64,000 nucleotides of DNA from Candidatus Omnitrophota bacterium (GCA_015233115.1 JADFYJ010000003.1:104536-168535); one strand, 5' to 3'. Positions 1-53,826 are shown, counted from the stretch's first letter. Notes: generated by a model from the sequence alone, not told the origin. A program made the numbers and translations.

Positions 1-120
1 CTTGGTAAGGCGACGGTATGAGGAGCTGGATGCCGGAGCTCCTGCGACGGCCGAAGCGCCAAGGAAACTCGCTCGGAGATTCGGTTTAAACGTAAACCTT
101 GTGTTTGGGGCACGCGGTTT
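1..120 (+). repeat. Structured ~125-bp palindromic element, copy A (long-apex variant, truncated by window edge)
   Basis: ...GCCAAGGAAACTCGCTCGGAGATTCGGTTTAAACGTAAACC...GGGGCACGCGGTTTG matches 3' arm and flank of copies B-G. Confidence 0.7.
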
Positions 121-151
121 GAAAATGAACGTTAACATTCAACTATAAAAT

Positions 152-1057
152 ATGGCAAAATTCAATTTAAAAATTTGGTTGACCGCAGTCAGACCTTTTT
201 CATTCACGGCTTCGATTATGCCGGTTATTTTGGGGGGTTGTCTGGTCTGGGGATACAAGCAGGTGTTCCATTGGGACCTGTTTTTGGCGTTTCTTTTTTC
301 TGCGCTGTTCATTCACGCGGGGACCAATTTATTCAGTGATTATTATGATTTTACGCGCGGCGTGGATAAGCCCGGGACTTTTGGGTCCAGCGGAATTTTG
401 ACGTCGGGAACATTACAGCCTGTACAAATTTTAAACGCGGCACGTTTGATGTTGGTATTGGGTTTTGTTATCGGATTGTTTTTGGTGGCCCGTTTAGGAT
501 GGCCTATTTTAGTTTTAGGATTGATAGGAATGCTCGGAGGATATTCTTATTGCGGCCGGATGTTTGGTTATAAATATCTTGGTTTAGGAGAAATTTTTGT
601 TTTTTTATTTATGGGGGTATTGTTATTTACCGGCATATATTTCGTGTTAACCGGGGCTTGGACGTGGGATGTGGTGAACGCGTCATTGCCGATTTCGTTT
701 CTAGTCGCGGCGATTTTATTTGCCAACAATATGCGGGATATCAAAACCGATAAGGCGATTGGCGTAATCACCTTAGCCGGCAGGTTAGGTTTTCGCAGGA
801 GTAAATGGCTTTATTTGTTTTTTGTCGTCGGAGCATATGCGGCGGTTTTATTTTTGATCATCAACAAAACTTTTTCATTATGGTCTTTCTTAGTTTTATT
901 GACTGCGCCTAAAGCATTAAAGAATGTAGTGACGGTTTTTGAGTGTCCTGCAAATCATGTGGATACAATCGCGTTCATGGATCAGCAAACAGCTCAATTG
1001 CATTTGAATTTTGGTTTATTTCTAAGCCTATCATTTATTTTAAGTCGAGTATTATGA
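152..1057 (+). CDS. UbiA-family polyprenyltransferase (MenA-like 1,4-dihydroxy-2-naphthoate prenyltransferase)
   Basis: 301-aa polytopic membrane protein; Asp-rich motifs NLFSDYYDFTRGVD and ANNMRDIKTD typical of UbiA/MenA; stop overlaps next start (ATGA at 1054-1057). Confidence 0.6.
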   Translation: MAKFNLKIWLTAVRPFSFTASIMPVILGGCLVWGYKQVFHWDLFLAFLFSALFIHAGTNLFSDYYDFTRGVDKPGTFGSSGILTSGTLQPVQILNAARLMLVLGFVIGLFLVARLGWPILVLGLIGMLGGYSYCGRMFGYKYLGLGEIFVFLFMGVLLFTGIYFVLTGAWTWDVVNASLPISFLVAAILFANNMRDIKTDKAIGVITLAGRLGFRRSKWLYLFFVVGAYAAVLFLIINKTFSLWSFLVLLTAPKALKNVVTVFECPANHVDTIAFMDQQTAQLHLNFGLFLSLSFILSRVL

Positions 1058-1671
1058 AGAAAATTTTCTTAAGCCTTGCCGCTGCTTTTGGTTTCTGGTT
1101 TTTGATGTTCTCCCCGTGGACCAGTCATAAAATTAATTTTTGGTTCGTGATGATGTGCGCGTCTGGCGCTTTGGCTGGCTGGGGCTGCTGGGCTCAACGA
1201 TTCGAAGTGAAAAAAATTTTTCCATTCGAAGGCAAGCATGCCTGGATAGGATTGATCTCAGCGATTGTTTTATATAGTATATTTTGGCTGGGAAAAGCTG
1301 TGATTCTGCGCCTGGTGCCATTCGGCGCGGGCGAGATCAGCCGGGTTTATTTTACAAAACTAGGCGCTGATCCAAGGTGGATCGCAGCGGCATTATTGTT
1401 TTGGATCGGGCCGGGTGAAGAAATTTTTTGGCGCGGTTATATTCAACGGAAGTTGTCGTCGATAATGGGGTCAGGAAAAGGCTATTGGGTTACGTCTTTA
1501 ATTTATGCTCTGGTGCATATTTGGTCGTTTAATCTTTCTCTTTTTTTAGCGGCTTTGATTTGCGGCTTGTTCTGGGGTTTTCTATTCCGGAAATTTAATT
1601 CCATATGGCCGTCATTGATTTCGCACAGCCTGTGGGATGTGCTGATTTTTATAATATTCCCTTTAGGATAA
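1054..1671 (+). CDS. CPBP-family intramembrane metalloprotease (CAAX protease-like)
   Basis: Motifs GPGEEIFWRGY (EExxxR), LIYALVHIW and HSLWDVL (HxxxD/N) in a multi-TM protein; start chosen at ATG 1054 (MKKIFLSLAAAF) rather than the upstream 943 ORF. Confidence 0.55.
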   Translation: MKKIFLSLAAAFGFWFLMFSPWTSHKINFWFVMMCASGALAGWGCWAQRFEVKKIFPFEGKHAWIGLISAIVLYSIFWLGKAVILRLVPFGAGEISRVYFTKLGADPRWIAAALLFWIGPGEEIFWRGYIQRKLSSIMGSGKGYWVTSLIYALVHIWSFNLSLFLAALICGLFWGFLFRKFNSIWPSLISHSLWDVLIFIIFPLG

Positions 1672-1676
1672 TCAAA

Positions 1677-1994
1677 GTAACAGAGTGACAGAGTAACAAA
1701 GTGACAGAGAAAAGGCGAATGTTGAAAAAGGCGATTGATGCTGGAAAAATATCAGACAAAAAATATAAAACACAAAGTTACAAGAAAGATTGGCTATAAA
1801 AAAATATAATAAATATCTAAATTTTTGGCTATTACATTTTAGTTGTTAATTTTTTTGTTTTTTGCTTTGATACTTAGTTGCTCGGTTACCTTGTCACTTA
1901 ACATGCATTATTAGTTTTATGTTATTTGTTTTTAGGTTTTTTTGTTTGGTGTTTTTTTACTTTGTTACTCTGTCACTCTGTTACTCGGTTACTT
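1677..1994 (+). repeat. Intergenic inverted-repeat cassette (GTRACMRA octamer family)
   Basis: L array 1677-1709 AGTAACAGAGTGACAGAGTAACAAAGTGACAGAG + AAAAGGCGAATG; R array 1960-1994 CTTTGTTACTCTGTCACTCTGTTACTCGGTTACTT (reverse complement); AT-rich spacer. Confidence 0.8.
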
Positions 1995-2003
1995 TAAAAA
2001 GTA

Positions 2004-6979: not shown

Positions 6980-6989
6980 AGTTTAAAAC

Positions 6990-7040
6990 GTGACAATGTA
7001 ATAGTGTAACAATGTGACAATGAAAAAGAGAAAAACGAAG
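6990..7040 (+). repeat. Left-type array (GTGACAATG family) after purC
   Basis: GTGACAATGTAATAGTGTAACAATGTGACAATG + AAAAAGAGAAAAACGAAG; partial inverse copies TTCATTGTCACG (7091-7102) and GCATTGTCACATT (7277-7289) flank structured-element copy B. Confidence 0.7.
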
Positions 7041-7140
7041 AGCAAAATAGAAATATAAATTTTATCTTTTTCACAATCATGTTTTCCTATTTCATTGTCA
7101 CGTTTTAATTCGTTTTGTTAAATTTTTGCGTTTTTAATAA

Positions 7141-7262
7141 AGCGCGCGGCAGGGCGGTTTGCATTTAAACCGAATCCTTCGCTCAAACAGCAGCTCCGAA
7201 GCGGAGCTGAACTCGCTCTGGGATTCGGTTGCAACGCCAACCTTGAGTTTAAGCAAGCGGTT
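7141..7262 (+). repeat. Structured palindromic element, copy B
   Basis: AGCGCGCGGCAGGGCGGTTTGCATTTAAACCGAATCCTTCGCTCAAACAGCAGCTCC-GAAG-CGGAGCTGAACTCGCTCTGGGATTCGGTTGCAACGCCAACC; upstream of purL. Confidence 0.8.
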
Positions 7263-7309: not shown

Positions 7310-10207
7310 ATGCTTTGGCGTATAGAAATATCTCACAAAGAAGGCGTATTTGACGCGGCGGGGGAAGGCGTCACCAAGTCAGCTATTGATTTGGGAATTG
7401 CGTCTATCCGTAAAGTCGAAGTGACCCAGGTGTATACTCTCGATTGTTCCTTGATTCATGATCAGATCGAAACTGTTTGCCGTGAATTATTGTCAGACCC
7501 GGTTACCCAAAAATTTTCGTTTATTCCTCAAAAAGATTTTGTGCCACCCGTCCAAGGGGATGATTTTCAAGTCATAGAGATAGCGTATAATCCTGGCGTT
7601 ATGGATCCGGTGGAATATTCTGTGATCAAAGGAATTCGGGATCTTGGTCTGGGCGAGGTTAAGAGTGTTAAAACCGCGAAGCAATATCAGGTTTGCGGTC
7701 CGGCTCAGCAAGTGCCGATGTTGGTGACAAAAGTGCTGGCTAATAAATTGATACAGCATCAGGTGAATTATGCTGTTTTGCGTCAGGAACATCCTCCTAC
7801 CATGGGCAACGCGGAGCATGAAGTGATTTTAGTTGATTTGATTAAGGCCAATGACAAACAATTGATGAAATTAAGCCAAGACGGCCAATTGTTTCTTAAT
7901 ATCGACGAAATGAAAGCGATTCAGGCGTATTTTAAAAATATCGGCCGCAATCCTACGGATTGTGAGCTGGAAACTGTGGCGCAGACCTGGAGCGAACATT
8001 GTTTTCATAAAACCTTCCGTGGAAATATCGAATTTGAATATACGGACAAAGGGAAAACGAAAAAACGCATTATAAAAAATTTATTAAAATCAACGATCGT
8101 AAAAGCTACGACGGAATTAGATAAAAAATGGTGTGTGTCCGTATTTCACGACAACGCGGGCGTGATTGAATTTGATAAAGATTCGCATGTGTGTTTTAAA
8201 GTGGAAACGCATAATCATCCTTCGGCATTGGAACCGTTTGGCGGCGCTAACACGGGAATCGGCGGAGTGATCCGGGATATTTTAGGAACCGGATTAGGCG
8301 CGAAACCGATTTGTTCAACAGATGTGTTTTGTTTTGCTCCGCCGGATACGGAATGGAAAGATGTGCCGGCTGGCACCCTGCATCCGAAACGGGTGATGAA
8401 AGGTGTGGTCAGCGGAGTGCGGGATTACGGTAATAAAATGGGAATTCCGACAGTGAACGGCGCTATAGTGTTTGATCCATTGTATATCGGCAATCCGTTG
8501 GTTTATTGCGGGAATGTCGGGATCATGCCGAAAAATAAAGTATTAAAAAAGGTTTATAAGGGCGATTGCATTGTTGTCGTAGGCGGGCGAACTGGCCGCG
8601 ATGGGATTCATGGCGCCACTTTTTCATCTGGCGAATTAACCACGCAATCCGAAGTTGTATCGTCCGGAGCAGTGCAGATCGGCGATCCGATTCAGGAGAA
8701 AAAAGTTTTAGACGCGATGTTGATCGCGCGGGATCGCGGCCTTTATTCAGCTGTGACAGATTGCGGCGCAGGCGGTTTATCGAGCGCAGTCGGTGAGATG
8801 GGACAGGAACTGGGCGCGTGGGTTGATCTGGATAAAGTGCCTTTAAAATATACCGGGCTCAATTATGATGAGATTTGGATTTCCGAGTCGCAAGAACGTA
8901 TGGTTTTCAGCGTGCCGGAAAAAAATGTGGATGAGATGCTGAAAGTGTTCGCGTCGGAAAATGTGGAAGCTGTGGTGATCGGATATTTTACCGGCAAAAA
9001 AAAGCTGGAATTATTTTACAAGGAAACACAAGTTTGTGAATTGGACATGGCTTTTTTACATGACGGAAATCCGCGTATTACCAAGAAGGCACAATGGACC
9101 GCGCCGAAATTAAAAATTAAAAAAAGGCCGGCTAAAATTGATTTAAATGAAAAATTGCTGGAAGTCATGGGGCATTATAATATTTGTTCCAAAGAATGGG
9201 TGATCCGGCAGTATGACCATGAAGTGCAGGGCGGCAGTATTATCAAGCCGTTGGTCGGGCCGCAGTGTGACGGGCCGTCGGACGCGAGTGTGATTACGCC
9301 GAAACTGGGGTCGAAAAAAGGGCTTGCGATTTCTAACGGGATTAATCCGCGTTACAGCATGGTTGATCCATACTGGATGGCGGGCGCGTGCATTGATGAA
9401 GCAGTCCGGCAGATTGTCTGCGTGGGCGGGGCGGTTGACCGCATCGCGATTTTGGATAATTTTTGCTGGGGCAATCCGGATAAGCCGGATCGGTTAGGCT
9501 CTTTGGTCCGCGCCGCTGAAGGGTGTTATAAATTCGCGGTAGCTTATGGTGTGCCGTTTATTTCCGGTAAAGATAGTTTGTACAACGAATACGCGCAAAA
9601 TAAAAAGACTATCGCGATCCCCGGGACGCTTTTGATTTCCGCCATCGGTATTGTTGAGGATGTGACCAAAACTGTGACCATGAATTTTAAAAAACCCGGC
9701 AGTTTGATTTATGCTGTGGGCCTCACTCAGGATGAATTGGGCGGTTCAGTTTATTTGGACACGTTGGGAGACCTTGGTGTTGATGTGCCAAAGGTTAATC
9801 CAAAGCAAGCCATGAAAACATTTAAAGCTTTAAACCAGGCCGTATCAAAAGGGTTAGTGAATGCCATGCATGATTGTTCAGACGGCGGTTTGGCGGTTAC
9901 GCTCGCGGAAATGGCGTTTGGTGGAAAATTAGGGGTGACCGCGCGCTTGGATTACGTGCCGTATCGCGGTACAGACAAACGGGATGACACCATTTTGTTT
10001 TCCGAGACAGCATCAAGATTTGTGGCAGAAGTATTGCCTGAAAATAAAAAGGCATTTGAAGCAGCGTTAAAAGGGGTGCCATGCAAAGTGATTGGCAAGG
10101 TCGAGAGCACTCCGGAATTTGTGATTTATGGGCTTAAACATAATGTGGTGGTTAACCTTTTTATCCAAGACCTTTGTGAGGCTTGGAAACAACCCTTAAG
10201 GTGGTAA
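7310..10207 (+). CDS. purL: Phosphoribosylformylglycinamidine synthase, PurS-PurL fusion
   Basis: 965 aa; N-terminal ~80 aa PurS-like, then FGAM synthase II core (AIR-synthase-like repeated domains, GDPIQEKK). Confidence 0.85.
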   Translation: MLWRIEISHKEGVFDAAGEGVTKSAIDLGIASIRKVEVTQVYTLDCSLIHDQIETVCRELLSDPVTQKFSFIPQKDFVPPVQGDDFQVIEIAYNPGVMDPVEYSVIKGIRDLGLGEVKSVKTAKQYQVCGPAQQVPMLVTKVLANKLIQHQVNYAVLRQEHPPTMGNAEHEVILVDLIKANDKQLMKLSQDGQLFLNIDEMKAIQAYFKNIGRNPTDCELETVAQTWSEHCFHKTFRGNIEFEYTDKGKTKKRIIKNLLKSTIVKATTELDKKWCVSVFHDNAGVIEFDKDSHVCFKVETHNHPSALEPFGGANTGIGGVIRDILGTGLGAKPICSTDVFCFAPPDTEWKDVPAGTLHPKRVMKGVVSGVRDYGNKMGIPTVNGAIVFDPLYIGNPLVYCGNVGIMPKNKVLKKVYKGDCIVVVGGRTGRDGIHGATFSSGELTTQSEVVSSGAVQIGDPIQEKKVLDAMLIARDRGLYSAVTDCGAGGLSSAVGEMGQELGAWVDLDKVPLKYTGLNYDEIWISESQERMVFSVPEKNVDEMLKVFASENVEAVVIGYFTGKKKLELFYKETQVCELDMAFLHDGNPRITKKAQWTAPKLKIKKRPAKIDLNEKLLEVMGHYNICSKEWVIRQYDHEVQGGSIIKPLVGPQCDGPSDASVITPKLGSKKGLAISNGINPRYSMVDPYWMAGACIDEAVRQIVCVGGAVDRIAILDNFCWGNPDKPDRLGSLVRAAEGCYKFAVAYGVPFISGKDSLYNEYAQNKKTIAIPGTLLISAIGIVEDVTKTVTMNFKKPGSLIYAVGLTQDELGGSVYLDTLGDLGVDVPKVNPKQAMKTFKALNQAVSKGLVNAMHDCSDGGLAVTLAEMAFGGKLGVTARLDYVPYRGTDKRDDTILFSETASRFVAEVLPENKKAFEAALKGVPCKVIGKVESTPEFVIYGLKHNVVVNLFIQDLCEAWKQPLRW

Positions 10208-10916: not shown

Positions 10917-11734
10917 AAGTTTTAGTCCTGCGCACAGCAGGCACAAATTGCAACGGTGAAATGGCCAATGCTTTTGAGCATTTTGGCGCTCAAGTGGACC
11001 AGGTTCATATCAAGCGCTTGCGTCAGCATGAAATTTTGCTGAAGGATTATCATATTTTAGCTATTCCCGGCGGATTTACTTACGGCGATGATATTGAATC
11101 AGGCCGGATTTTGGCTAATGAATTGCGCTTGCATCTGGGAAAAGATTTGGCTCAATTTATTCAGGATAAAAAATTGATTATCGGCATATGCAACGGATTT
11201 CAGATTTTAGTTAAAGCGGGAATATTGCCCGGAAATTTGGATAAAGGACAATCTTCCATGGAAGAAGGATTTAAGCAGTCTTCGACTTTGACGAATAATG
11301 ATTCCGGAAAATTTGAAGATCGTTGGACTTATTTGAAGGTTGCCGGCGAAAGTGTATGGACGAAAAATTTATCGCCTGTCGTATATTTTCCGGTCGCGCA
11401 CGCGGAAGGCAAATTTATTCCCATGAGTGAGGACGTATTACAGGGATTAAAGCATAATCAGCAGATCGCGTTTACTTATTGTTCGGCTCAGGGAGGAGAG
11501 CCTGTTTATCCGGAAAACCCCAATGGATCGACTCTGCATATCGCGGGCATTACAGATGTGACTGGGAGGATCTTAGGCTTGATGCCGCATCCGGAACGCC
11601 ATTTTTATTTTGAAAACAGTCCTAATTGGAATGGACAGGCTAAAAAAAATAAATTAGGCGATGGCGCGCAGATTTTTAAAAATGGCGTGGAGTACGTGCG
11701 CAATACTTTATTAAGTAACCGAGTAACCGAGTGA
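10901..11734 (+). CDS. purQ: Phosphoribosylformylglycinamidine synthase glutaminase subunit
   Basis: KVLVLRTAGTNCNGE, catalytic GICNGFQIL, HPER; last codons (LSNRVTE-TGA) lie inside the GTAACCGA repeat array. Confidence 0.8.
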   Translation: MEKHIKVLVLRTAGTNCNGEMANAFEHFGAQVDQVHIKRLRQHEILLKDYHILAIPGGFTYGDDIESGRILANELRLHLGKDLAQFIQDKKLIIGICNGFQILVKAGILPGNLDKGQSSMEEGFKQSSTLTNNDSGKFEDRWTYLKVAGESVWTKNLSPVVYFPVAHAEGKFIPMSEDVLQGLKHNQQIAFTYCSAQGGEPVYPENPNGSTLHIAGITDVTGRILGLMPHPERHFYFENSPNWNGQAKKNKLGDGAQIFKNGVEYVRNTLLSNRVTE

Positions 11735-12037
11735 CAGAGAAAAAGCGTTTGGTGTAAAAAAAGCCGATGCGAGATAACAATAAAAAACGACTGCAAAAAG
11801 TAATAATCAATACTTAAGAGCAGAGACTAGTAATTTTTTCTGAAAAGTGTTTTAATGACATCCATTTTTATAATTTAGTTTATATTGTTATAAATTTATC
11901 GAATTTTTTTGTTATTGTTTTTTTTCGTCTATTTGTTTTAACTTTTTATTTTTAAATTTTATGTTTTTAAATAGCATTTTATTTTTTTGTTTTTACTCTG
12001 TTACTTGGTTACTCGGTTACTCGGTTACTCTGTCACT
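11714..12037 (+). repeat. Intergenic inverted-repeat cassette (GTRACMRA family), purQ-purM
   Basis: L 11714-11739 AGTAACCGAGTAACCGAGTGACAGAG + AAAAAGCGTTTGG; R 11993-12037 TACTCTGTTACTTGGTTACTCGGTTACTCGGTTACTCTGTCACTT. Confidence 0.8.
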
Positions 12038-12063
12038 TAACTGTAATGATTAAAGGAATTTCT

Positions 12064-13068
12064 ATGACTACCAGTATTACATATAAAACCAGCGGTGTAG
12101 ATATTGATAAGGCCAATCAATTTGTCGATAATATTGGGACGCATGTGAAAAGTACGTTTGTGAAAGGCGTGATGACCCGAAAGGGGTCATTCGGCGCTTT
12201 GTTTGGGCTGGATACTAAAAAATATAAAGAGCCGGTTATGGTGTCCTCGACAGATGGGGTTGGAACGAAACTACTGATTGCCAAAGCATTGAACAAGCAT
12301 GATACTGTCGGCATTGATCTCGTGGCTATGAATGTGAATGATATTTTGTGTGTCGGCGCAAAGCCCTTGTTCTTTTTGGATTATATCGCGTGCGGTAAAG
12401 TTGATGTTAAGATTTTGACGGATGTGGTTAAGGGAATTGCGGATGGCTGCCGTCAATCAGGGTGCGCTTTAATCGGTGGAGAAACCGCGGAAATGCCGGG
12501 GATGTACGCGGCGGATGATTATGATTTGGCTGGATTTACCGTGGGCGTGGTTGAGAAAGCTAAGATTGTGGATGGTTCGAAAATTAAAGCCGGAGATGTT
12601 TTATTCGGATTGCCTTCTACCGGCGCGCATTCGAACGGATATTCTATGGTGCGAAAAGTTTTGTCTTTGTCTGACATGAAAAAGATGAGGGACGCGGTTT
12701 TGGCGCCCACAAAAATATATGCCAAGGAAGTGGAAGCGGCGTGTGCGAAGTTTAATGTGAAGGGGATGGCGCATATTACCGGCGGCGCGTATTATGAAAA
12801 ATTGCCTCGAATATTGCCTAAGGGTTTGTGCGCGAAGGTGAATACGTCCAGTTGGGATGTGCCAGAGCTATTTAAAATGATTCAGAAAAAAGGCAATGTG
12901 GCCAAGAGTGAGATGTATCGCACATTTAATATGGGTATTGGGTATGTGTTTGTGATCGCTAAAAAAGACGCGGAGCAATTTGGCAAATTTTTGAAAGCGA
13001 AAAAAATTGTGTATCATATTATTGGTGAAGTTATTAAAGATAGTAAACAAAGGGTTATTTTAGAGTAA
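12064..13068 (+). CDS. purM: Phosphoribosylformylglycinamidine cyclo-ligase (AIR synthase)
   Basis: SGVDIDKANQFV..., AIR synthase fold; start 12064 chosen (AAAGGA RBS 6 nt upstream) over ORF-track 12046. Confidence 0.85.
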   Translation: MTTSITYKTSGVDIDKANQFVDNIGTHVKSTFVKGVMTRKGSFGALFGLDTKKYKEPVMVSSTDGVGTKLLIAKALNKHDTVGIDLVAMNVNDILCVGAKPLFFLDYIACGKVDVKILTDVVKGIADGCRQSGCALIGGETAEMPGMYAADDYDLAGFTVGVVEKAKIVDGSKIKAGDVLFGLPSTGAHSNGYSMVRKVLSLSDMKKMRDAVLAPTKIYAKEVEAACAKFNVKGMAHITGGAYYEKLPRILPKGLCAKVNTSSWDVPELFKMIQKKGNVAKSEMYRTFNMGIGYVFVIAKKDAEQFGKFLKAKKIVYHIIGEVIKDSKQRVILE

Positions 13069-13329
13069 CCAAGTAACCAAGTAACCGAGTAACCGAGTGA
13101 CAGAGAAAAAGCGGTTGGATTGAGAAATTAATAAATAAAAACTACGGGAAAAATAAAAAATTTAGAACAAGAGAAGCAGATAAAAAATGTGTGATTTTGT
13201 TGGTTTATTGGCATTAAATTTTATGCTTTATCGTTGTTAATGTGTTGTGCTGTTACGGTTTTTTTATTTTTTTAGCATTCGTTTTTTGTTTTTACTTTGT
13301 TACTCGGTTACTTGGTTACTCTGTCACTT
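13064..13329 (+). repeat. Intergenic inverted-repeat cassette (GTRACMRA family), purM-purD
   Basis: L 13064-13105 (GTAACCAA x2, GTAACCGA x2, GTGACAGA) + AAAAAGCGGTTGG; R 13295-13329 CTTTGTTACTCGGTTACTTGGTTACTCTGTCACTT; right side also has CATTCGTTTTTT (reverse complement of box variant). Confidence 0.8.
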
Positions 13330-13347
13330 AATGATTAAAGGATTTAT

Positions 13348-14634
13348 ATGAAGATAATGGTAATTGGCTCTGGCGGTCGGGAGCATACGATAGTTTGGAA
13401 ATTGAAGCAAAGCCTTAAGGTGGAGCAGATTTTTTGCGCGCCGGGAAATGGCGGCATTGCGCAGTTAGCTACTTGCGTTGATATTAAGGTGGAGGATATT
13501 AACGGGCTTTTAAATTTTGCTCAGAAAGAAAAGATTGATCTAACCGTCGTGGGTCCGGAAACGCCTTTGGTGGCTGGGATTGTTGATGCGTTTGAGAAAA
13601 AGGGGTTTAAAATTTTTGGGCCTTCGAAGTCGGCGGCGCAGTTGGAGGGGAGTAAGATTTTCGCGAAGATGTTTATGGCGGAAGAGGATATTCCGACAGC
13701 TATATTTGCGACATTTGATCAGATCAAAGACGCAAAGATATATTTGAAAAAAAATAAATTTCCGGTAGTGTTAAAGGCGGATGGGTTGGCGGCAGGCAAA
13801 GGTGTAGTGATTTGTCAGAATGAGCAGGAGGCTTTTGCGGCGTTAGATCAGATCATGGGAGAAAAAATTTTCAAAGATGCCGGGTCTAAAGTTGTCATTG
13901 AGGAATTTTTGCAAGGCGAAGAAGTTTCGGTTTTAGCGATCTGTGATGGTGATCATTTCGTTATGCTGGAATCTTCCCAGGATCATAAAAGGGCATTTGA
14001 TCAGGATCAGGGCCCGAATACCGGAGGGATGGGCGCGTATTCGCCGGCACCGGTTTTGAAAGAAGGCTCGAATGAAAAAGAAGCCTATGCTATTATTGAA
14101 CAAACGATCAAGGGGATGAAAAAAAGCGGCAGGCCGTTTAAAGGTGTGTTGTACGCGGGTTTAATGATTACAGCCAAGGGCGTAAAAGTTTTGGAATATA
14201 ATGTGCGGTTTGGTGATCCGGAGACTCAGGTGATTTTGCCGCGCTTGAAAAATGATTTTGTGGATTTGATGCTGGCTTCGTGTGAAGGACATTTGGACCA
14301 AATAAAATTGGAATGGGATCCTCGTTCTGCGGTGTGTGTGGTGATGGCCGCGAAAGGATACCCCGGCGATTACGCGAAAGGTTTGAAGATTAGCGGGTTG
14401 GATCAGGCGGCCTTAGTGAATGATGCTATGGTATTTCACGCTGGGACAGTGAAAAAGGGCGATGATATTTTAACGGCAGGCGGACGGGTTTTGGGTGTGA
14501 CGGCATTGGGTGATGGCATTAAAAAAGCGATAGATAGCGCTTACGAAGCGGTGCAGATGATTCAATGGGATGGGTGTTTTTATCGTCGAGATATAGGATA
14601 TCGCGCATTGGAACGTCTGAAAAATGGTATGTAG
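13348..14634 (+). CDS. purD: Phosphoribosylamine-glycine ligase
   Basis: MKIMVIGSGGREHTIVWKL, ATP-grasp; AAAGGA RBS. Confidence 0.85.
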   Translation: MKIMVIGSGGREHTIVWKLKQSLKVEQIFCAPGNGGIAQLATCVDIKVEDINGLLNFAQKEKIDLTVVGPETPLVAGIVDAFEKKGFKIFGPSKSAAQLEGSKIFAKMFMAEEDIPTAIFATFDQIKDAKIYLKKNKFPVVLKADGLAAGKGVVICQNEQEAFAALDQIMGEKIFKDAGSKVVIEEFLQGEEVSVLAICDGDHFVMLESSQDHKRAFDQDQGPNTGGMGAYSPAPVLKEGSNEKEAYAIIEQTIKGMKKSGRPFKGVLYAGLMITAKGVKVLEYNVRFGDPETQVILPRLKNDFVDLMLASCEGHLDQIKLEWDPRSAVCVVMAAKGYPGDYAKGLKISGLDQAALVNDAMVFHAGTVKKGDDILTAGGRVLGVTALGDGIKKAIDSAYEAVQMIQWDGCFYRRDIGYRALERLKNGM

Positions 14635-14655: not shown

Positions 14656-14782
14656 GGCGCGCGGTAGGGCGGTTTGCATTTAAACCAAATCATTCGCTCA
14701 AACAGCAGCTCCTAAGCGGAGCTGAACTCGCTCGGTGATTCGGTTTAAACACAAACCTTGTGTATGGGGCACGCGGTTTGGA
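14656..14782 (+). repeat. Structured palindromic element, copy C
   Basis: Same family; apex CAGCTCC-TAAGC-GGAGCTG; upstream of purE. Confidence 0.8.
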
Positions 14783-14836
14783 GATGTACGCGAAGATTAA
14801 TGATTACAGGAAATATTTGAAGATAGAGGAGGGCGT

Positions 14837-16381: not shown

Positions 16382-16569
16382 GTATGTAGTATGTGGTATG
16401 TGGTGGAAAAAAGAGTATAAAAAAGAGAAACGCATAAAAGGAGTTATTGATGAGAAGGGAATTGGCTAAAAATTTTAAATAAGATGTAAATAAAGTATAT
16501 CTAATAACTTTTTTTGTGTTTATAAATAAATTTTGTTTACTACATACGACATACTACGAACTACATACT
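16382..16569 (+). repeat. Intergenic inverted-repeat cassette (GTATGTN heptamer family), tsaC-fusion to rpiB
   Basis: L 16382-16407 GTATGTAGTATGTGGTATGTGGTGG; R 16538-16569 TACTACATACGACATACTACGAACTACATACT. Confidence 0.8.
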
Positions 16570-16585: not shown

Positions 16586-17038
16586 ATGAAGGTTTATATT
16601 GGCGCGGATCACCGCGGGTTTGATTATAAAGAAAAAATTAAAAAAATTCTCGAGAATTTGGGGAATGAGGTATTTGATGTTGGCACGAATGACCCGGAAT
16701 GTAGTTGTGATTATCCGCGGTTTGCGTATGAAGTCGCGTCTAAGGTGGCGAAATTCAAGAATTCCCGTGGCGTGTTGATTTGCATGTCTGGCATTGGCCA
16801 GTCTATCGCGGCGAACAAAGTTAAAGGCGCGTACGCGGCTTTGGTTTATAGTATTGAATCGGCTCGATTATCACGGATGCATAACAATGCTAATATTTTG
16901 GTGATCGGAGTAAATTCGATTAAAGCGAAAGATTTAAAAACAGTGGTCGAAGTATGGATGAACGAAAAATTTGAAGGTGGCCGCCATCTGCGCCGTTTTA
17001 ATTTGGTTAAGAAAATTGAAGCAGGAAAAATAATTTAG
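16586..17038 (+). CDS. rpiB: Ribose-5-phosphate isomerase B
   Basis: MKVYIGADHRGFDYKE, RpiB/LacAB fold; AAAGGA RBS. Confidence 0.85.
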   Translation: MKVYIGADHRGFDYKEKIKKILENLGNEVFDVGTNDPECSCDYPRFAYEVASKVAKFKNSRGVLICMSGIGQSIAANKVKGAYAALVYSIESARLSRMHNNANILVIGVNSIKAKDLKTVVEVWMNEKFEGGRHLRRFNLVKKIEAGKII

Positions 17039-17041
17039 TTA

Positions 17042-17292: not shown

Positions 17293-17320
17293 ATAAAGTT
17301 AATTTAAAACGGAGAATTAT

Positions 17321-18571: not shown

Positions 18572-18668
18572 TATGTGGCATGTCGTATGTAGTGAAAAAT
18601 AAAAAATCAAATAAAACCTTGCTGGTTTATAGTTTTGCTACATACGACATACTACGAACCACATACTT
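18564..18668 (+). repeat. Intergenic inverted-repeat cassette (GTATGTN family), glyA-nrdR
   Basis: L 18564-18593 GTATGTAGTATGTGGCATGTCGTATGTAGTG (contains glyA stop); R 18637-18668 GCTACATACGACATACTACGAACCACATACTT; spacer only ~45 bp. Confidence 0.8.
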
Positions 18669-32046: not shown

Positions 32047-32055
32047 TAGATAAGC

Positions 32056-37423: not shown

Positions 37424-37612
37424 CGTATATCGCGGTATTTGTGGTTTGTATTACATCCAGGATGGAACGCGGCCTAAAATTGTTTTCATTGTTGGTCATA
37501 TCATTAACTTTGCTGTGGATCCAGCACCCGGTGTGGCTGGCACGGGCAATTTATCATGTTAAAATGTTTTTCTGTTCTAAAGGGCTCTGTCATTAAAATA
37601 AATATTGGTATT

Positions 37613-37642
37613 CATGGATCCCCGATTTAAGCGTTCGGGGAT
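37613..37642 (+). repeat. GGATCCCCGA hairpin repeat, copy 2
   Basis: GGATCCCCGATTTAAGCGTTCGGGGATGACAC. Confidence 0.55.
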
Positions 37643-37655
37643 GACACGTTTAATT

Positions 37656-37685
37656 TATTTTTACATTGTCACACTGTTACGTTGT
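37656..37685 (+). repeat. Unpaired right-type array (GTGACAATG family, reverse-complement orientation)
   Basis: TTACATTGTCACACTGTTACGTTGTTACAG just upstream of small ORF. Confidence 0.6.
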
Positions 37686-39659: not shown

Positions 39660-39675
39660 TGTTTTAATTTAGTTA

Positions 39676-39930
39676 AGTAACCGAGTAACAGAGTAACCGA
39701 GTGACAGAGCAAAACGATTTATGAGAATAAAAATGGTGATTTACTTATAAAAAATGATTGAGTGAAAAAGCGAAAAAGATAAATTAAACGAGAATGAAAA
39801 GATGTAATAAATTTAAAGGTGTTTAAGTTTTGGGATAATATTTTTGTTTATTAGTATTTGGATAATAGTTTACCGACATTTATTTTTACGTTTTTCTTTT
39901 TCGCTCTGTTACTCGGTTACTCGGTTACTT
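39676..39930 (+). repeat. Intergenic inverted-repeat cassette (GTRACMRA family), miaA-hflX
   Basis: L 39676-39709 AGTAACCGAGTAACAGAGTAACCGAGTGACAGAG + CAAAACGATTTATG; R 39904-39930 CTCTGTTACTCGGTTACTCGGTTACTT; inner flanks GAAAAAGCGAAAAAG / CTTTTTCGCTC also mirror. Confidence 0.8.
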
Positions 39931-39945
39931 AAAAGGGGAGCACCT

Positions 39946-41365: not shown

Positions 41366-43498
41366 ATGAAAAAAGGTATGATGAGGGCGATGTTCATTCT
41401 AGGGTTAGGAGTTGCTTTTTTATATTCGGCCTCTTTCGCGTATGCTGATGGAGGGTCATTCACACTATTTTCAACCGTACCATCGGCCATGGCGTCATAC
41501 GATCAAATTAAAATAGTGCCAGCTGTTCATCCGATAGGAACAGACTGTACTAGTGATGGTGTAGGGACTATTTATACAGATTCTAATGGAAATTTATTAA
41601 AATGCGGATCAGCAAAAAAAATTGAGGATATTGATAATGTCTGGACATTTGATTCCGCAAGTCAATTAGTGAATTTGAAATCAGGAGTTCTCAATTATAA
41701 GCTGGGGATTGGGACATCTTCTCCTGGAGCCATACTCGATATTTATAAAAACTCTGCCGGATATTCTGCGCCGATGTTGTTAGTCAATAATCCTGCAGTG
41801 GGAGCAGTTCCGCGTTTACGCTTACAGAGTGCGGATGGCACCGGAGTTAATAAATATGCGGATATTTTTTGGTCAGCAGGTGATTATTCTTTAAATTTGT
41901 CCAACCATGATACTTTTGGTAATTCTGGCATCAATTTTTTAACCTCTGCTGGGCAAAAGATGGTTATTCATAATGACGGCAATGTTGGAATTGGAACGAC
42001 CGCGCCAACTCAAACTTTAAATGTGTTAAATGCTAGTTTTATTCAAGGAGAATTTTCAAGTTCAACAAGTTCTGGTGGGATAAAATTAACTCCATACGCA
42101 GGAGGGCACAGCTGGGAATTTCAAGCTATTGCCAGTGATAGTTCGCCTGCGAATTCACTCATTGTTTATGACCGAGGTGCAGCGGCGTATAGAATGATGA
42201 TTAATAGTTCGGGGAATGTTGGTATCGGGACAACTGCTCCAAGGGGGGGGTTTGATTTGGCAGGAACAGGGGATGTTTATCTGGCTAATAATACAGTAGC
42301 TGGACCTGCAGCCGTACAAAGTATTTATCTTCCTGGTCATATTTATATAGCTCCCTTAAATAATTCGTCAAATGTTTCTTATTTGCAGGCCAGACGGTCA
42401 GATAATAGTGGAAGTACAGAATTACAGGTACGGACATATAATGCGGGTACTTTAGTTGATGCTATGAGAATTAGTAGTTTAGGTAATGTCGGCATTGGAA
42501 CGACTATGCCTCAGAATCAATTACATATCCATAATCCTAATTCGGCAGGCTTGCGTCTGAGCGGTCTTAATAATAATAGCGGTTCTAATTATAACGGAAT
42601 AATATTCGCTAATAGTGAGACAAGCATTAATAATGCTTGGCTTTTAAATCAAATTTCTTGTGTAGGCGGTAATGCGGTGGATAAACAACATATAGATGGC
42701 GGGTTTGTTTTTCAAAAGTGGGCGAATGCCTCGGGCAACCCTGTTGCCAACACATTATTGTTGGATAATTTAGGTAATATAGGAATGAGGATGGGAGAAG
42801 GTGGGCCTAATTATCCTGATACAAATTTTCATATTAACATGATAAGAGATTATACAGGTATTACTTTATCTAACGCTAATAACCCATATGGTGTGGCTGG
42901 GGCTTCAAATTTTCAATCTGGTATACGTTTTAAAGCGTACGAACCGGCTACCTTTGGGTACTGGATGGGAAGAACTGGTTATGATTTTCAGTTTGGATAT
43001 GAATCAACCAATCAACTGACGACTCCCAATATTGCCGCAGCACCGATTATGTCGTTTAAGCATAACAATGGTAGCGGAGTTTGGGATGTGGTGGGGATAG
43101 GAACGCTTGCGCCTTTTGGTCCTTATAAATTGTACGTGCAGGGGAACATAAACGCGCAAGGGGCTTTTTATTCGTGGGGAGGTTGGGTTGCATCGGATAT
43201 GCGTTTGAAAAAGGATGTTCAAACTGTTCCTAATGCGTTACAACGGGTGACACAATTGCGCGGGGTGAATTATAAATGGATTGATGAAGCCCGGGGTAAA
43301 GAAACACAAATGGGCGTGATCGCTCAGGAAGTGGAAAAAGTTTTTCCTGAAGTGGTGCAGACCGATGCCCAAGGGTTTAAATCTGTAGCTTATCAGAATA
43401 TGGTTGGTGCATTGATTGAAGCCGTCAAAGAATTAAATGTTAAAGTGGATAAATTGAGCAAAGAAAACGAGGAGCTCAAAAAGAAAATGGTTAAGTAG
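41366..43498 (+). CDS. Secreted tail-fibre-domain protein with C-terminal S74-type intramolecular chaperone domain
   Basis: Signal peptide MKKGMMRAMFILGLGVAFLYSASFAYA; repeated GNVGIGTTAP motifs; C-terminal SDMRLKKDVQTV...LRGVNYKWID...GVIAQEVEKVFPEVV like endosialidase/tailspike chaperone domains; strong RBS AAGGAGGAG. Confidence 0.65.
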   Translation: MKKGMMRAMFILGLGVAFLYSASFAYADGGSFTLFSTVPSAMASYDQIKIVPAVHPIGTDCTSDGVGTIYTDSNGNLLKCGSAKKIEDIDNVWTFDSASQLVNLKSGVLNYKLGIGTSSPGAILDIYKNSAGYSAPMLLVNNPAVGAVPRLRLQSADGTGVNKYADIFWSAGDYSLNLSNHDTFGNSGINFLTSAGQKMVIHNDGNVGIGTTAPTQTLNVLNASFIQGEFSSSTSSGGIKLTPYAGGHSWEFQAIASDSSPANSLIVYDRGAAAYRMMINSSGNVGIGTTAPRGGFDLAGTGDVYLANNTVAGPAAVQSIYLPGHIYIAPLNNSSNVSYLQARRSDNSGSTELQVRTYNAGTLVDAMRISSLGNVGIGTTMPQNQLHIHNPNSAGLRLSGLNNNSGSNYNGIIFANSETSINNAWLLNQISCVGGNAVDKQHIDGGFVFQKWANASGNPVANTLLLDNLGNIGMRMGEGGPNYPDTNFHINMIRDYTGITLSNANNPYGVAGASNFQSGIRFKAYEPATFGYWMGRTGYDFQFGYESTNQLTTPNIAAAPIMSFKHNNGSGVWDVVGIGTLAPFGPYKLYVQGNINAQGAFYSWGGWVASDMRLKKDVQTVPNALQRVTQLRGVNYKWIDEARGKETQMGVIAQEVEKVFPEVVQTDAQGFKSVAYQNMVGALIEAVKELNVKVDKLSKENEELKKKMVK

Positions 43499-45369: not shown

Positions 45370-45420
45370 TATGCCCTAATTCCGGATTAGAAGTATGAAT
45401 TAGGGCAGTAGGTCGGGCGT

Positions 45421-45577
45421 GGTATGTAGTATGTAGAAAAAACGAATGATTTAAAAAAATAACAATCAAAAATTCTCAATACTAATATAAGATTTTCATT
45501 TACGTTTTTTGATTTTGCATTTATTTAATTTTTACGATTTTTTTGCCACATGTTATATGCTACATACTACATGTTAT
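45421..45577 (+). repeat. Intergenic inverted-repeat cassette (GTATGTN family) between CIRCE and hrcA
   Basis: L 45421-45436 GGTATGTAGTATGTAG + AAAAAACGAATGA; R 45545-45577 GCCACATGTTATATGCTACATACTACATGTTAT. Confidence 0.7.
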
Positions 45578-46936: not shown

Positions 46937-47062
46937 AAGCGCGCGGTAGGGCGGTTAGCATTTAAACCAAATCATTCGCTCAAACAGCAGCTCCTAAGCG
47001 GAGCTGAACTCGCTCGGTGATTTGGTTTCAACGCAAACCTTCTGTAGGGGGCACGCGGGTTG
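46937..47062 (+). repeat. Structured palindromic element, copy E
   Basis: Same family; between grpE and dnaK. Confidence 0.8.
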
Positions 47063-47109
47063 AAGATGTGTATGAAAATTTAGGGTTTTTGTTTTTTGTT
47101 TAGTTTTTT

Positions 47110-47382
47110 ACTTTGTTACTCTGTTACTCGGTTACTTTGTTACTTAATGATTACAGGAAATATATGAAGATAGAGTAGGGGGCACGCGGGTTGAGGATGT
47201 ACGCGATAAAAAATATAGATAATATGTTAAAGAAGATGATGGCTTTTGTAGAAAAATTGACTTAGTTTTTTTGTTTAATAATCTTAGCTTTAAATTTTTA
47301 GTTTTTGATTTTTTGTATTTGATTTTGTATAGCTTTTTTACGTTTTTACTCTGTCACTCGGTTACTTGGTTACTCTGTTACT
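47110..47382 (+). repeat. Two right-type GTRACMRA arrays in the mosaic grpE-dnaK spacer
   Basis: 47110-47145 CTTTGTTACTCTGTTACTCGGTTACTTTGTTACTT and 47346-47382 TTTACTCTGTCACTCGGTTACTTGGTTACTCTGTTACT; between them 47146-47205 copies the purE leader (TTAATGATTACAGGAAATAT.TGAAGATAGAG...GGGGCACGCGG.TTG.GGATGTACGCG, cf. 14766-14835). Confidence 0.7.
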
Positions 47383-47410
47383 AATAATTTAATAACAAGA
47401 AGGAGAATAT

Positions 47411-50496: not shown

Positions 50497-50504
50497 TGGA
50501 AAGA

Positions 50505-50606
50505 GTCGTAGGGGCGATCTCCTGATCGCCCGTTAAAAAATTAGCGCTTTTGTTTTTTGGTTTTGCTTTTGCTTTGTTACTCTGTTACTTGGTTACTCTG
50601 TTACTA
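50505..50606 (+). repeat. Solo GC-rich hairpin element plus right-type GTRACMRA array upstream of FmdB-family gene
   Basis: 50505-50536 GTCGTAGGGGCGATCTCCTGATCGCCCGTTAA; 50571-50606 CTTTGTTACTCTGTTACTTGGTTACTCTGTTACT. Confidence 0.7.
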
Positions 50607-51351: not shown

Positions 51352-52617
51352 ATGCAAAACACGATTAAACCATTTAAAGCATATTATTATAATCCGGAGA
51401 AAGTAGATTTCGCTAAGGTGGTTTGTCCGCCTTATGATGTGATATCTGCTGATGATCAAGTAAAACTACATGAACGCAGCCCCTATAATTTTACCCATAT
51501 TGATCTGGGAAAAGATAAACCTTCCGATAGCAAAGACAATAATAAGTATACCCGTGCGAAGACTATTTTTGATACTTGGGTTGAAAAAAATATCATTATG
51601 CAGGATGAAATGCCCAGTATTTATTTTTACAAGCAGGAATATAAAATCGTTGGACAGAAACACTGCCGCGTAGGATTTATTTCTTTAATGCATCTTAAAA
51701 ACGATCAGGAGTCCAAAGTTTTTCCGCATGAAAATACTCATGCCCATGCTGTGGATGACCGGTTACAATTGACCAAAGCTTTAGACGCGAATTTGAGCTG
51801 TATTTTTGTGTGTTATGCTGACCAGCAGAAAAAAGTGGAAAATATTTTTAACCACAAAGTGGCAGCGTCGATGCCTATGGTGGACGTGAAAGATGATGAT
51901 GGCGTGCGGCATATTTTATGGAGGTTGTCTGATCCGGTATTAATTAAACAAGTTCAGCAGACATTGGAAGGCCAGCAATTATTTATTGCTGATGGTCACC
52001 ACAGATTTAAGGTGGCTAACGAATATCGTCAGTTCCGCAGTGGGAGTAAAAAAAGTATATCTGGCGAAGAACCGTTTAATTATGTCATGACTTATTTTAC
52101 AAATATTGATTCAAAAGACCTTAAGATTTTTCCCATGCATCGGATTGTGAAAAAATTTAAAGCAGATCTTACTTCTTTAGAAGAGTTTTTTAGAATAGAC
52201 CGCATCAAAAATAAAGCAGAATTGCCAATTCTTTTAGCTCAAGCCGGCCGCAATGAACACACCTTTGTTTTATATACTAAAGAGGGGAGCCGCCTGCTTC
52301 GGCTGAAAAACCGTTTGCTTATTGATGAAGTGGTGAAAGATGGTTCCAGCGAATACAAACGGTTGGATGCCGTCATCCTGAAAAATTTTATGTTTGATAA
52401 ATTAGGCATCAAATCTGAAGATATTATTTATACTAAAGATATGAATGAGGTCATGAGTGCTGTGGATAATGGACAGGCTGAAGCGGGTTTTATTTTAAAT
52501 CCGGTCAGAATTGAACAATTGAAAGCTATCGCTCTTAACGGCGAAAAAATGCCGCCTAAGACGACTTATTTTTATCCAAAAGTTTTATCTGGTTTGACTG
52601 TTTATAAAATGGAATAG
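51352..52617 (+). CDS. DUF1015 domain protein
   Basis: YYYNPEKVDFAKVVCPPYDVIS N-terminus typical of DUF1015. Confidence 0.55.
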   Translation: MQNTIKPFKAYYYNPEKVDFAKVVCPPYDVISADDQVKLHERSPYNFTHIDLGKDKPSDSKDNNKYTRAKTIFDTWVEKNIIMQDEMPSIYFYKQEYKIVGQKHCRVGFISLMHLKNDQESKVFPHENTHAHAVDDRLQLTKALDANLSCIFVCYADQQKKVENIFNHKVAASMPMVDVKDDDGVRHILWRLSDPVLIKQVQQTLEGQQLFIADGHHRFKVANEYRQFRSGSKKSISGEEPFNYVMTYFTNIDSKDLKIFPMHRIVKKFKADLTSLEEFFRIDRIKNKAELPILLAQAGRNEHTFVLYTKEGSRLLRLKNRLLIDEVVKDGSSEYKRLDAVILKNFMFDKLGIKSEDIIYTKDMNEVMSAVDNGQAEAGFILNPVRIEQLKAIALNGEKMPPKTTYFYPKVLSGLTVYKME

Positions 52618-52622
52618 GAGAA

Positions 52623-52750
52623 CTGCGCGCGGGTTGGGACGGTTTGCATTCAAACCAAATCCTTCGCTCAAACAACCTTGGCGAAGCGCCAAGGAAACTC
52701 GCTCGGGGATTCGGTTTAAACGCAAACCTATATTTTGAGCGCGCGATTAA
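52623..52750 (+). repeat. Structured palindromic element, copy F
   Basis: Apex CCTTGGCG-AAG-CGCCAAGG; upstream of accD. Confidence 0.8.
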
Positions 52751-52775
52751 TGAATTTTTTAGGAGACAGTACCTC

Positions 52776-53621
52776 ATGGTCTTATTCGGAAGAAAAGAAT
52801 ATACTTTGGTGAATGTAAAAAAACGCGGGATCCCTGCGGGTTTGTGGGAAAAATGTCCGGAGTGTGACGCGCCTATTTACAAAAAAGAGCTGGATAATAA
52901 TTGGAATGTTTGTTTAAAATGCGGCTATCATATGACGCTGTCTGCCAGGCAAAGGATTCAGCTTTTGGTTGATCAAGGCACTTTTGAAGAACATGACGCG
53001 GAAATGTTATCTAAAGATCCATTGCATTTTAAGGGGCCTAAGACTTATCAAGCAAAATTAGAAGCAGATCAAAGGGCAACGGGTTTGTTAGACGCAGCCA
53101 TAACTGGTAAAGGAAATATCGATGGCCGTCCCTGCGCGATTGCGGTTACGGATTCGCAGTTTATTATGGGGTCGATGGGTTCGGTGGTGGGTGAAAAGAT
53201 TACGCGTGCGATTGAATATGCGACGAAAAACAGTTTGCCGGTGCTTATTGTGTCCGGTTCCGGCGGAGGCGCGCGGATGTATGAAGGTGCTATTTCGTTG
53301 ATGCAGATGGCCAAGACTTGTGCCGCTTTGGCCAAACATGCGGAAGCTAAACTCTTATATATTTCGCTTTTAACCAACCCGACCATGGGCGGTATCATGG
53401 CTTCATTTGCCGGCGTGGGGGATATCATTATGGCAGAACCGCGCGCGTTAATTGGTTTTGCCGGGCCGCGGGTTATTGAACAGACCATACGCCAAAAATT
53501 ACCGGACGGATTTCAAAGCTCCGAATTTATGCTGGCGCATGGGCTTTTGGATCTCATCACGCACCGGTCAGAACTTAAAAAACAAATCAGCCTCTTGATC
53601 AGTTATGCCACAAAGAGGTAA
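52776..53621 (+). CDS. accD: Acetyl-CoA carboxylase carboxyltransferase beta subunit
   Basis: Zn ribbon CPECDAPIY...CLKCGYH, CT-beta domain; start 52776 with AGGAGA RBS, because ORF-track 52644 start lies inside the structured repeat. Confidence 0.8.
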   Translation: MVLFGRKEYTLVNVKKRGIPAGLWEKCPECDAPIYKKELDNNWNVCLKCGYHMTLSARQRIQLLVDQGTFEEHDAEMLSKDPLHFKGPKTYQAKLEADQRATGLLDAAITGKGNIDGRPCAIAVTDSQFIMGSMGSVVGEKITRAIEYATKNSLPVLIVSGSGGGARMYEGAISLMQMAKTCAALAKHAEAKLLYISLLTNPTMGGIMASFAGVGDIIMAEPRALIGFAGPRVIEQTIRQKLPDGFQSSEFMLAHGLLDLITHRSELKKQISLLISYATKR

Positions 53622-53702
53622 TGGTTGCTTTTGATCAGTGTTGTGTATAAATTATAGATTGTAATTATATTAATCGTTTTTGCATTGTTACGTTTTTAAT
53701 AA

Positions 53703-53826
53703 AGCGCGTGGGTAGGGCGGTTGGCATTTAAACCAAATCCTTCGCTCAAACAGCAGCGACTCGGCGTCGCTGAACTCGCTCGGGGATTCGGTTTTAACGC
53801 CAACCTTGAGTATGGGCACGCGGTTA
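53703..53826 (+). repeat. Structured palindromic element, copy G
   Basis: Apex CAGCGAC-TCGGC-GTCGCTG; arms GGTTGGCATTT... / ...AACGCCAACC co-vary; upstream of ABC ATPase gene. Confidence 0.8.

Follow-up and report, generated by a model that had tools for sequence, protein, structure and literature searches.

A candidate REPIN/MITE-like long-hairpin repeat in the operon spacers of a Candidatus Omnitrophota bacterium

A stretch of 64,000 nucleotides from a Candidatus Omnitrophota bacterium (GCA_015233115.1, JADFYJ010000003.1:104536-168535; hereafter the window) possesses seven copies of a hairpin-forming element in the spacers between its genes. [quoted passage not shown] It is multi-copy and non-coding, appears to have been inserted at two sites (copies F and G), and comprises decaying copies, fragments, mosaics and copies with insertions at the apex, a combination that argues for a non-autonomous mobile repeat and not for RNA genes. 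The compensation of changes in its stems, its invariant loops, the common orientation of all copies and the restriction of wobble pairs to one strand point to the recognition of a folded single strand, not of double-stranded ends.

Each copy is an imperfect palindrome of about 120 nt, with a size range of 120-160 nt. A first-pass annotation of the window had listed seven copies; all are present at the positions it gave, and both a profile hidden Markov model (nhmmer) and the covariance model that it had proposed as a check recover exactly these seven and none further, in a single orientation that equals the direction of the genes. A 21-nt pattern taken from the arms matches the window 13 times, with no match expected. 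The copies are as follows.

1-117, + strand: copy A, 5' half lost at the window start; type-II apex (..CTTGG / GCCAAGG), subfamily-I 3' arm and base stem, 3' tail to about 141
7142-7260, + strand: copy B, subfamily I; leader CGTTTTTAATAAA at 7129-7141
14657-14776, + strand: copy C, subfamily I, purD-purE spacer; 3' tail to about 14800
21212-21367, + strand: copy D, subfamily II, cca/macro-Nudix spacer; 34-nt apical insertion; 21209-21381 with leader ACT and tail ATTTTTTAATTTTTT
46939-47058, + strand: copy E, subfamily I; begins 4 nt past the grpE stop codon; 3' tail to about 47084
52622-52759, + strand: copy F, subfamily II, DUF1015-accD spacer; leader ACT, tail ATTAATGAATTTTT; hairpin core 52625-52746; the best-preserved copy
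53704-53823, + strand: copy G, subfamily I, accD/ABC ATPase spacer; leader at 53691-53703

Outermost lies a 6-bp (CG)n base stem (CGCGCG/CACGCG); past an internal loop of some 8 x 10 nt comes a 22-bp arm helix (GGTTTGCATTTAAACCRAATCC / GGATTYGGTTTAAACGCAAACC, arm sequences that the first-pass annotation had quoted correctly), both halves of which form small palindromes of their own, GGTTT-N6-AAACC. There follows an asymmetric internal loop (5' side TCGCTCAAACA, 3' side AACTCGCTC), which contains the direct repeat TCGCTC, is invariant in every copy and forms the best-conserved block of the element. The 8-bp apical hairpin is replaceable and tolerates insertions. Its stem occurs in the three versions described earlier, CAGCTCC/GGAGCTG (B, C, E), CCTTGGC(G)/(C)GCCAAGG (A, D, F) and CAGCGAC/GTCGCTG (G); the apical insertions reported for A and D are both present, and the size of 40-50 nt given for them fits A (about 46 nt) but not D. 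The ends carry terminal inverted repeats, 5'-AA(N2)GCGCG ... CGCG(N2)TT-3', in addition to the 22-bp arms. Subfamily I (B, C, E, G) has a common 5' end and the CAGCTCC apex, except that G has its own apical stem, and subfamily II (D, F) combines a T-rich tail with the CCTTGGCG apex and with a different common 5' end. GTAG occurs near the base in subfamily I only (GGTAGGG), its place being taken by GGGYTGGG in D and F. Copy A, with its type-II apex and type-I 3' end, is a mosaic. No reading frame is conserved across the copies, and a protein-coding element is rejected because the stop codons vary among them.

Pairs were counted in a hand-curated alignment of 36 helix pairs in the six full copies, with the partial copy A excluded. 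Of these 216 cells, 189 are Watson-Crick on the + strand, 17 are A.C (at 5 positions), none is G.T and 10 are other mismatches (B, C, E, G). Double-sided changes that keep the pair are found at seven pairs, five of them apical, and all three versions of the apical stem are paired. In the arm, position 5 changes from T-A to G-C in G and position 22 from C-G to A-T in C and E; compensated changes of copy G lie in the arm (GGTTGG/CCAACC) and also in the base stem (CGCGTG/CACGCG). In the - strand alignment 95.7% of the cells pair, as against 90.1 +/- 1.2% in shuffles (0/500 shuffles as high), and 29-40% pair when the partners are slid. The earlier claim that the structure is conserved through compensatory changes is therefore borne out by the double-sided pairs and by the shuffle test. 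Copies B and G have a derived A->C in the 3' arm in common, after which B altered the partner inside the same arm, restoring the mini-palindrome as GGTTG..CAACC, and G altered the partner in the opposite arm, restoring the long hairpin as GGTTGG/CCAACC. Both changes had been noted before and are confirmed. Because B and G restored different partners, the long hairpin and the fold with self-paired arms both appear to be kept. Templated correction of quasi-palindromes in replication is an established mechanism, and it could give the same outcome in B and G in the absence of selection. Every mismatch in the arm and base stem of C is A.C on the + strand. As the first-pass annotation had stated, B, E and G also carry non-wobble mismatches, one to four per copy and uncompensated, in arm and base stem (four in B, two transversions in the arm of E). 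With their uncompensated transversions, these three copies are decaying.

The closest relative, L020 (GCA_015233195.1), has a DUF1015 protein 83% identical and the same gene order as the window from dnaK through the UDP-glucose dehydrogenases; the comparison with it covers the sites of F and G. The gap between the DUF1015 gene and accD measures 20 nt in L020 versus 158 nt in the window, where it holds F, and that between accD and the ABC gene 4 nt versus 274 nt, where it holds G. At the F site the spacer is 16 nt long in L015 and 7 nt in L018, two more distant relatives (DnaK 83-85% identical). The F site is thus empty in three relatives and the G site in L020, and the element is absent from the syntenic loci of four related genomes. 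At least F and G are therefore lineage-specific insertions, placed into formerly compact junctions of housekeeping genes, directly behind the stop codon. A perfect direct repeat of 7 bp bounds F on both sides.

52615-52621, no strand assigned: TAGGAGA, left, possible target-site duplication; holds the DUF1015 stop codon
52760-52766, no strand assigned: TAGGAGA, right, possible target-site duplication; holds the accD ribosome-binding site (RBS)

Removal of F plus one repeat recreates a stop/RBS junction that is compact and resembles the one in the relatives, and a 4/7 repeat is found around D at the same offsets as in F. These repeats bear on the question of whether the element is a classical MITE derived from a DDE-type insertion sequence (IS), in which the hairpin would represent joined terminal inverted repeats, and orientation and wobble pairs would be founder effects combined with selection in operons. 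Size, terminal inverted repeats, non-coding and intergenic character and the long hairpin are textbook features of such elements (PMC3184786). We nevertheless consider a classical MITE unlikely. No flanking repeat of at least 6 nt occurs at C or E, and the chance of a repeat of at least 7 nt in shuffled AT-rich flanks is 0.04-0.57. The copies are all co-oriented, the compensatory changes affect internal stems, for which a transposase binding double-stranded DNA has no need, the internal loop and not the termini is most conserved, and no IS lies in the window.

The copies share their flanks unequally, with a 13-nt leader common to B and G and a tail of about 26 nt common to A, C and E. In addition, a solo 3' fragment lies 120 nt downstream of E.

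47175-47215, + strand: solo fragment, 3' base stem and tail of a C-like copy (GTAGGGGGCACGCGGGTTGAGGATGTACGCGA), fused to a duplicated segment with 5' untranslated region (UTR) and start codon

Shared flanks and solo fragment together suggest that the element spread imprecisely or with the help of recombination, or that sub-lineages differ a little in their ends. A segment of 37 nt that looks like the start codon and 5' UTR of purD (TTAATGATTACAGGAAATATWTGAAGATAGAG) occurs at 13328-13364, 14797-14833 and 47144-47180. Segments of this type are duplicated downstream of C and of E; in the E spacer the segment forms a mini open reading frame (ORF) of four codons (MKIE*) and is fused to the solo fragment. 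Segment and fragment stand in a different order at the C and E sites, which suggests recombination at element copies.

The two strands of the element differ in their folding. As RNA, the - strand folds better than the + strand in every one of the six full copies, by 1.3-21.7 kcal/mol (- vs + strand: B -46.8/-45.5, C -55.5/-44.7, D -73.6/-51.9, E -50.4/-45.8, F -65.4/-50.2, G -56.5/-47.5), and with DNA energy parameters in five of six. The consensus fold reaches -49.0 kcal/mol on the - strand versus -36.2 on the + strand, fold z-scores are -8.6 and -8.4 on - and -4.4 and -2.5 on +, and the best structure holds 30-35% of the ensemble on - versus 3-4% on +. A covariance model built from the - strand alignment (R1) gives 114-139 bits on - and 22-46 bits on +, a gap that is not independent evidence, as the - strand sequences fit their own model by construction. 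The source of the asymmetry lies in five positions that are A.C on + and hence G.U on -. Arm position 8 is A.C in all copies, position 7 in C, and position 11 in D and F. Position 17 is A.C in four copies, G-C in B and A-T in E (on the - strand four times G.U, once G-C and once A-U). One base-stem pair is A.C, with C-G in F and T-A in G. As read on the - strand, the base stem gives U.G five times and C-G once. The first-pass annotation had described the mismatches of C, D and F as A.C throughout, with one mismatch recurring in all copies. Immediately inward of the arm, two U.G pairs (TT/GG) are formed on the + strand that are C.A on the - strand, and the all-A.C statement is therefore limited to the three main helices and does not extend to every possible pairing.

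Taken alone, the wobble pattern is weak, with about five events, mostly ancestral, and a one-sided p of about 0.03. Ten other intergenic inverted repeats of the window served as control. They carry 21 G.T and 7 A.C mismatches on the + strand and fold 10-28 kcal/mol better on that strand, and the ratio of 5 A.C to 0 G.T in the element differs from theirs (Fisher p=0.003). As the element is opposite to the control palindromes, the asymmetry is a property of the repeat family, and it runs against any replication-linked mutation bias that shapes the other palindromes. Such a bias is accordingly rejected as the cause of the A.C pattern, given that the other palindromes of the window are biased oppositely; selection to weaken + strand mRNA hairpins is rejected as well, because far stronger hairpins of the + strand occur commonly in these operons. 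The single orientation of all seven copies has a p of about 0.016 if orientation were random. All credible genes of the window lie on the + strand, and since the GC skew is positive throughout (+0.07 to +0.34, with no AT skew), + is taken as the leading strand. This difference between the strands is unusual and has statistical support.

From the wobble pattern, the first-pass annotation had predicted a functional RNA read antisense to the flanking genes. The copies would then be transcribed from the - strand as a hairpin of about 120 nt, serving as a small RNA or as a stop for antisense transcription. The far better defined fold of the - strand, G.U pairs at invariant or covarying positions (arm position 17, base stem), an asymmetry opposite to that of the background palindromes and a TTTATTA directly after the - strand hairpin in B, E and G agree with this prediction, for which the wobble asymmetry is the sole support. 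G.T wobble stabilises hairpins of single-stranded DNA too and explains the asymmetry equally well. Moreover, no promoter is recognisable (a scan for promoter and terminator consensus sequences gives counts equal to those of shuffles), C, D and F are without a U-tract on the - strand, and the uncompensated arm transversions of B, E and G are unexpected for selected RNA genes. The empty F and G sites of the close relative mark recent insertions, in unrelated operons, a density of roughly one copy in 9 kb is what selfish repeats, rather than RNA genes, typically show, and no Rfam family matches. The asymmetry itself is thus real, but the step from a better - strand fold to a functional RNA is unsupported, and an antisense RNA seems improbable to us. 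Similarly doubtful is a broader version, in which the functional - strand fold would represent either antisense hairpin RNAs (terminators or decoys against antisense transcription that opposes replication, where all genes point in one direction) or a single-stranded DNA signal on the leading-strand template, as part of a recent and wholesale remodelling of spacers through hairpin modules not present in the closest relative.

Less probable still is a cis-acting element of the + strand mRNA, i.e. a processing site, a stabiliser of 3' ends or a weak terminator, comparable to REP, ERIC or the RNase III sites of phage T7, in which A.C mismatches were selected to temper the helix. All copies lie between co-directional genes and immediately behind a stop codon, which makes their transcription on + almost certain; there the fold still amounts to -45 to -52 kcal/mol, and D and F have a T-run 8-14 nt past the stem; ERIC and REP sequences are known to influence mRNA decay (PMC3184786). 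The T-runs do not adjoin the stem, however, and are missing in the other copies, and in C the long hairpin is not the best + strand fold. Very stable + strand hairpins with many G.U pairs are tolerated or even favoured in other spacers, which leaves no obvious need to weaken this one, and the closest relative runs the same operons without the element. A riboswitch or leader of pur genes is rejected, as the same element also stands ahead of dnaK, accD, ABC and macro-Nudix genes.

For the favoured REPIN/MITE-like repeat, we infer that the enzyme making new copies would be encoded in another part of the genome. By analogy with HUH/Y1 enzymes (RAYT, the TnpA of IS200/IS605), this enzyme may recognise a folded single strand together with the invariant loop motifs, and the strand recognised in mobilisation is probably the one with the - strand fold. 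Recognition of a single strand would account for the uniform orientation, for the absence of any consistent target duplication, for the compensation in the stems and for the one-strand wobble. Selection for the fold would act on the lineages still copying and not on each resident copy, and the resident copies are probably passive passengers of the operon transcripts on +. Several observations weigh against such a repeat. The seven copies descend from one ancestor, so that the strand asymmetry rests on about five events, and with all genes on + the orientations of replication and transcription are inseparable. In IS200/IS605 the active strand is the lagging-strand template, which, judging from the GC skew, would here be the weaker-folding + strand; the better-folding - strand would be the leading-strand template and not the strand most exposed at the fork. 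The 7-bp repeat of F and the 4/7 repeat of D would favour a cut-and-paste MITE, and the unequal shared flanks are as compatible with a spread that is imprecise or recombinational as with precise transposition. Finally, no transposase, integrase, RAYT, Y1/HUH enzyme, TnpA or TnpB is encoded within the 64-kb window.

REPINs consist of two inverted REP units with a pairing spacer, take two alternative folds, show frequent compensatory changes and are mobilised in trans by RAYT (Bertels & Rainey 2011, PMC3116915). Among described elements they appear the closest kind, although membership cannot be claimed. Like them, the element is an extragenic imperfect palindrome of about 100-130 nt, non-coding and multi-copy, with two conserved inverted units that are each a small palindrome and a less conserved spacer in between; this spacer, formed by loop and apical hairpin, keeps its pairing by compensatory change. 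The two alternative folds, a long hairpin or self-folded units, are matched by the restorations in B and G (PMC3116915), and decaying copies, fragments, insertions into existing copies and the absence of a consistent target duplication are likewise in common. Unlike REPINs, the element has no sequence similarity to any REP (no match in the E. coli genomes), its arm palindromes are AT-rich and not GC-rich, GTAG is confined to subfamily I, the best-conserved block is the asymmetric loop, the copies are all co-oriented, the host belongs to the phylum Omnitrophota and no RAYT is found within 64 kb. The REP/BIME-like alternative mentioned in the first-pass annotation hence comes closer to the mark than the antisense RNA, without a match in sequence.

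ERIC sequences are MITE-like intergenic elements that form a long RNA hairpin and affect mRNA decay (PMC3184786). The 127-bp ERIC/IRU of Enterobacteriaceae are nearly equal to the element in length, form an imperfect palindrome as a whole, lie in intergenic regions within transcription units and possess size variants due to internal insertions (PMC3184786). They differ in sequence (E. coli blastn) and in having TA flanks, target duplications and both orientations, whereas the element is co-oriented and its duplication inconsistent. The ends of IS200/IS605 elements and their miniature derivatives, which transpose as single strands ('peel and paste'), resemble the element in the recognition of a folded single strand, as proposed here, in the lack of a consistent target duplication and in a strong orientation bias relative to replication (PMC5027513, PMC6006769). 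Where the element is one long palindrome, they possess separate subterminal hairpins at two distinct ends; the lagging-strand template, which here would be the weaker-folding +, carries their active strand, and the window lacks TnpA and TnpB. Integron attC sites are imperfect palindromes of similar length, with the bottom strand as the folded, recognised form, co-oriented copies just past a stop codon and a structure that outlasts the sequence at the apex. In contrast to attC, the element is flanked by core housekeeping genes in conserved order and not by cassettes, its copies are highly conserved in sequence, R/L box motifs were not identified and no integrase is present in the window.

Searches for the family elsewhere gave no relatives. 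Rfam yields no match at gathering thresholds over the whole window; at E<=10 over F and G, copy F has two partial matches, both weak (13.5 and 12.5 bits, with gathering thresholds of 117 and 101), and a third match lies inside accD. Blastn with 11-nt words finds no match in 5,426 complete E. coli genomes, so that the element is not a known REP type by sequence, and none in plasmids and phages; a scan of viral contigs was likewise negative. Scans with exact patterns of GTDB species genomes and JGI metagenomes returned chance matches only (gcvH and other coding sequences), the six-frame peptides of the element match none of 5.8 billion proteins, and no such repeat turned up in the literature on repeats of Omnitrophica/Omnitrophota. 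The element adds to Omnitrophota, an uncultured phylum, a well-delimited family of hairpin repeats whose structure is maintained. Its clean filled and empty sites lend themselves to the study of how such elements invade compact operons without disruption, and the reversed wobble asymmetry offers a testable handle on the recognised strand, a question still open for REPIN-like elements. Should orientation track replication and not transcription genome-wide, single-strand mobilisation would gain new evidence from beyond the Proteobacteria.

The window is part of a 169-kb contig of a metagenome-assembled genome, and the DnaK that it encodes is 100% identical to MBF0478370.1. Housekeeping genes of the window include menA, uvrC, pur genes, glyA, nrdR, cca, hrcA-grpE-dnaK-dnaJ and accD, besides genes for GGDEF proteins, ROK and UDP-glucose dehydrogenases. 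The copies are placed as purC|B|purSL, purD|C|purE, cca|D|macro-Nudix, grpE|E|dnaK and DUF1015|F|accD|G|ABC ATPase, in agreement with the gene context given earlier (purL, purE, dnaK, accD and an ABC ATPase gene downstream, cca upstream). The window contains neither tRNA nor tmRNA genes, and hence no tie to such insertion sites. PurL (7310-10207) is a fusion of 965 aa with two PurS-like segments (residues 4-71 and 89-150) ahead of the PurL body. An ORF at 23357-30376 encodes 2339 aa with a HAD hydrolase as sole recognised domain and has an internal 98-nt repeat (29204/29849), and a protein of 710 aa at 41366-43498 carries a C-terminal Peptidase_S74 domain, an intramolecular chaperone of phage tail-spike and endosialidase proteins; both genes are surrounded by housekeeping genes.

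Besides the element, most intergenic spacers are bracketed by long inverted arms of 8-nt tandem repeats.

1672-1918, 6983-7108, 11711-12041, 13062-13332, 16382-16568, 17027-17305: octamer modules
18564-18666, 19561-19747, 39673-39932, 45410-45576, 56272-56483: octamer modules, continued
47104-47148, 47342-47386, 50555-50606: octamer modules, right arm only

One version of the octamer has AAGTAACCGAGTAACCGAGTGACAGAG just past the stop codon and its complement just ahead of the next RBS; a second family is GTATGTAG/CTACATAC and a third GTGACAAT. On + the folding energy of the modules is better by 10-28 kcal/mol, and G.U pairs are numerous. L020, where the same junctions measure 9 nt or overlap, lacks them, and a more distant relative (L015-L017) has modules with different octamers. 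Octamer modules may be processing modules of the RNase III type or another mobile family. Within them, GAAAAAGCGRTTGG recurs after left arms (e.g. 1707-1735, 11737-11765, 13103-13125, 17068-17100), and TAGCATT or TATAGC in a T-rich stretch 12-20 nt before right arms (11972-11980, 13271-13279, 47327-47333); these motifs could be a putative promoter -10 element or a protein-binding site. Spacers are expanded relative to L020 at 7/11 comparable junctions, and this expansion by hairpin modules missing in the nearest relative may matter more than the element itself.

Further hairpins occur in single or few copies. A single-copy palindrome of about 122 nt (GGAACTGTTTGAAAACGCCCATCTGC ... GCATCTGGGCATTTTGAAACAGTTCC) at 57519-57642 begins immediately past the stop codon that ends the second GGDEF gene. 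The L020 spacer at this junction is 64 nt shorter (102 vs 166 nt) and without such a palindrome; the palindrome is a different hairpin insertion of the same habit. A GC-rich 47-nt inverted pair (TCGTAGGGGCGATCTCCCGATCGCCCG...) at 32057-32179 brackets the spacer 32047-32207; a left arm 80% identical to it follows dnaJ (50501-50564), so that this is another repeated hairpin module. A small hairpin (GGATCCCCGA..TCGGGGATGAC) is present in two 80%-identical copies at 22258-22308 and 37609-37659, each followed by a T-rich stretch.

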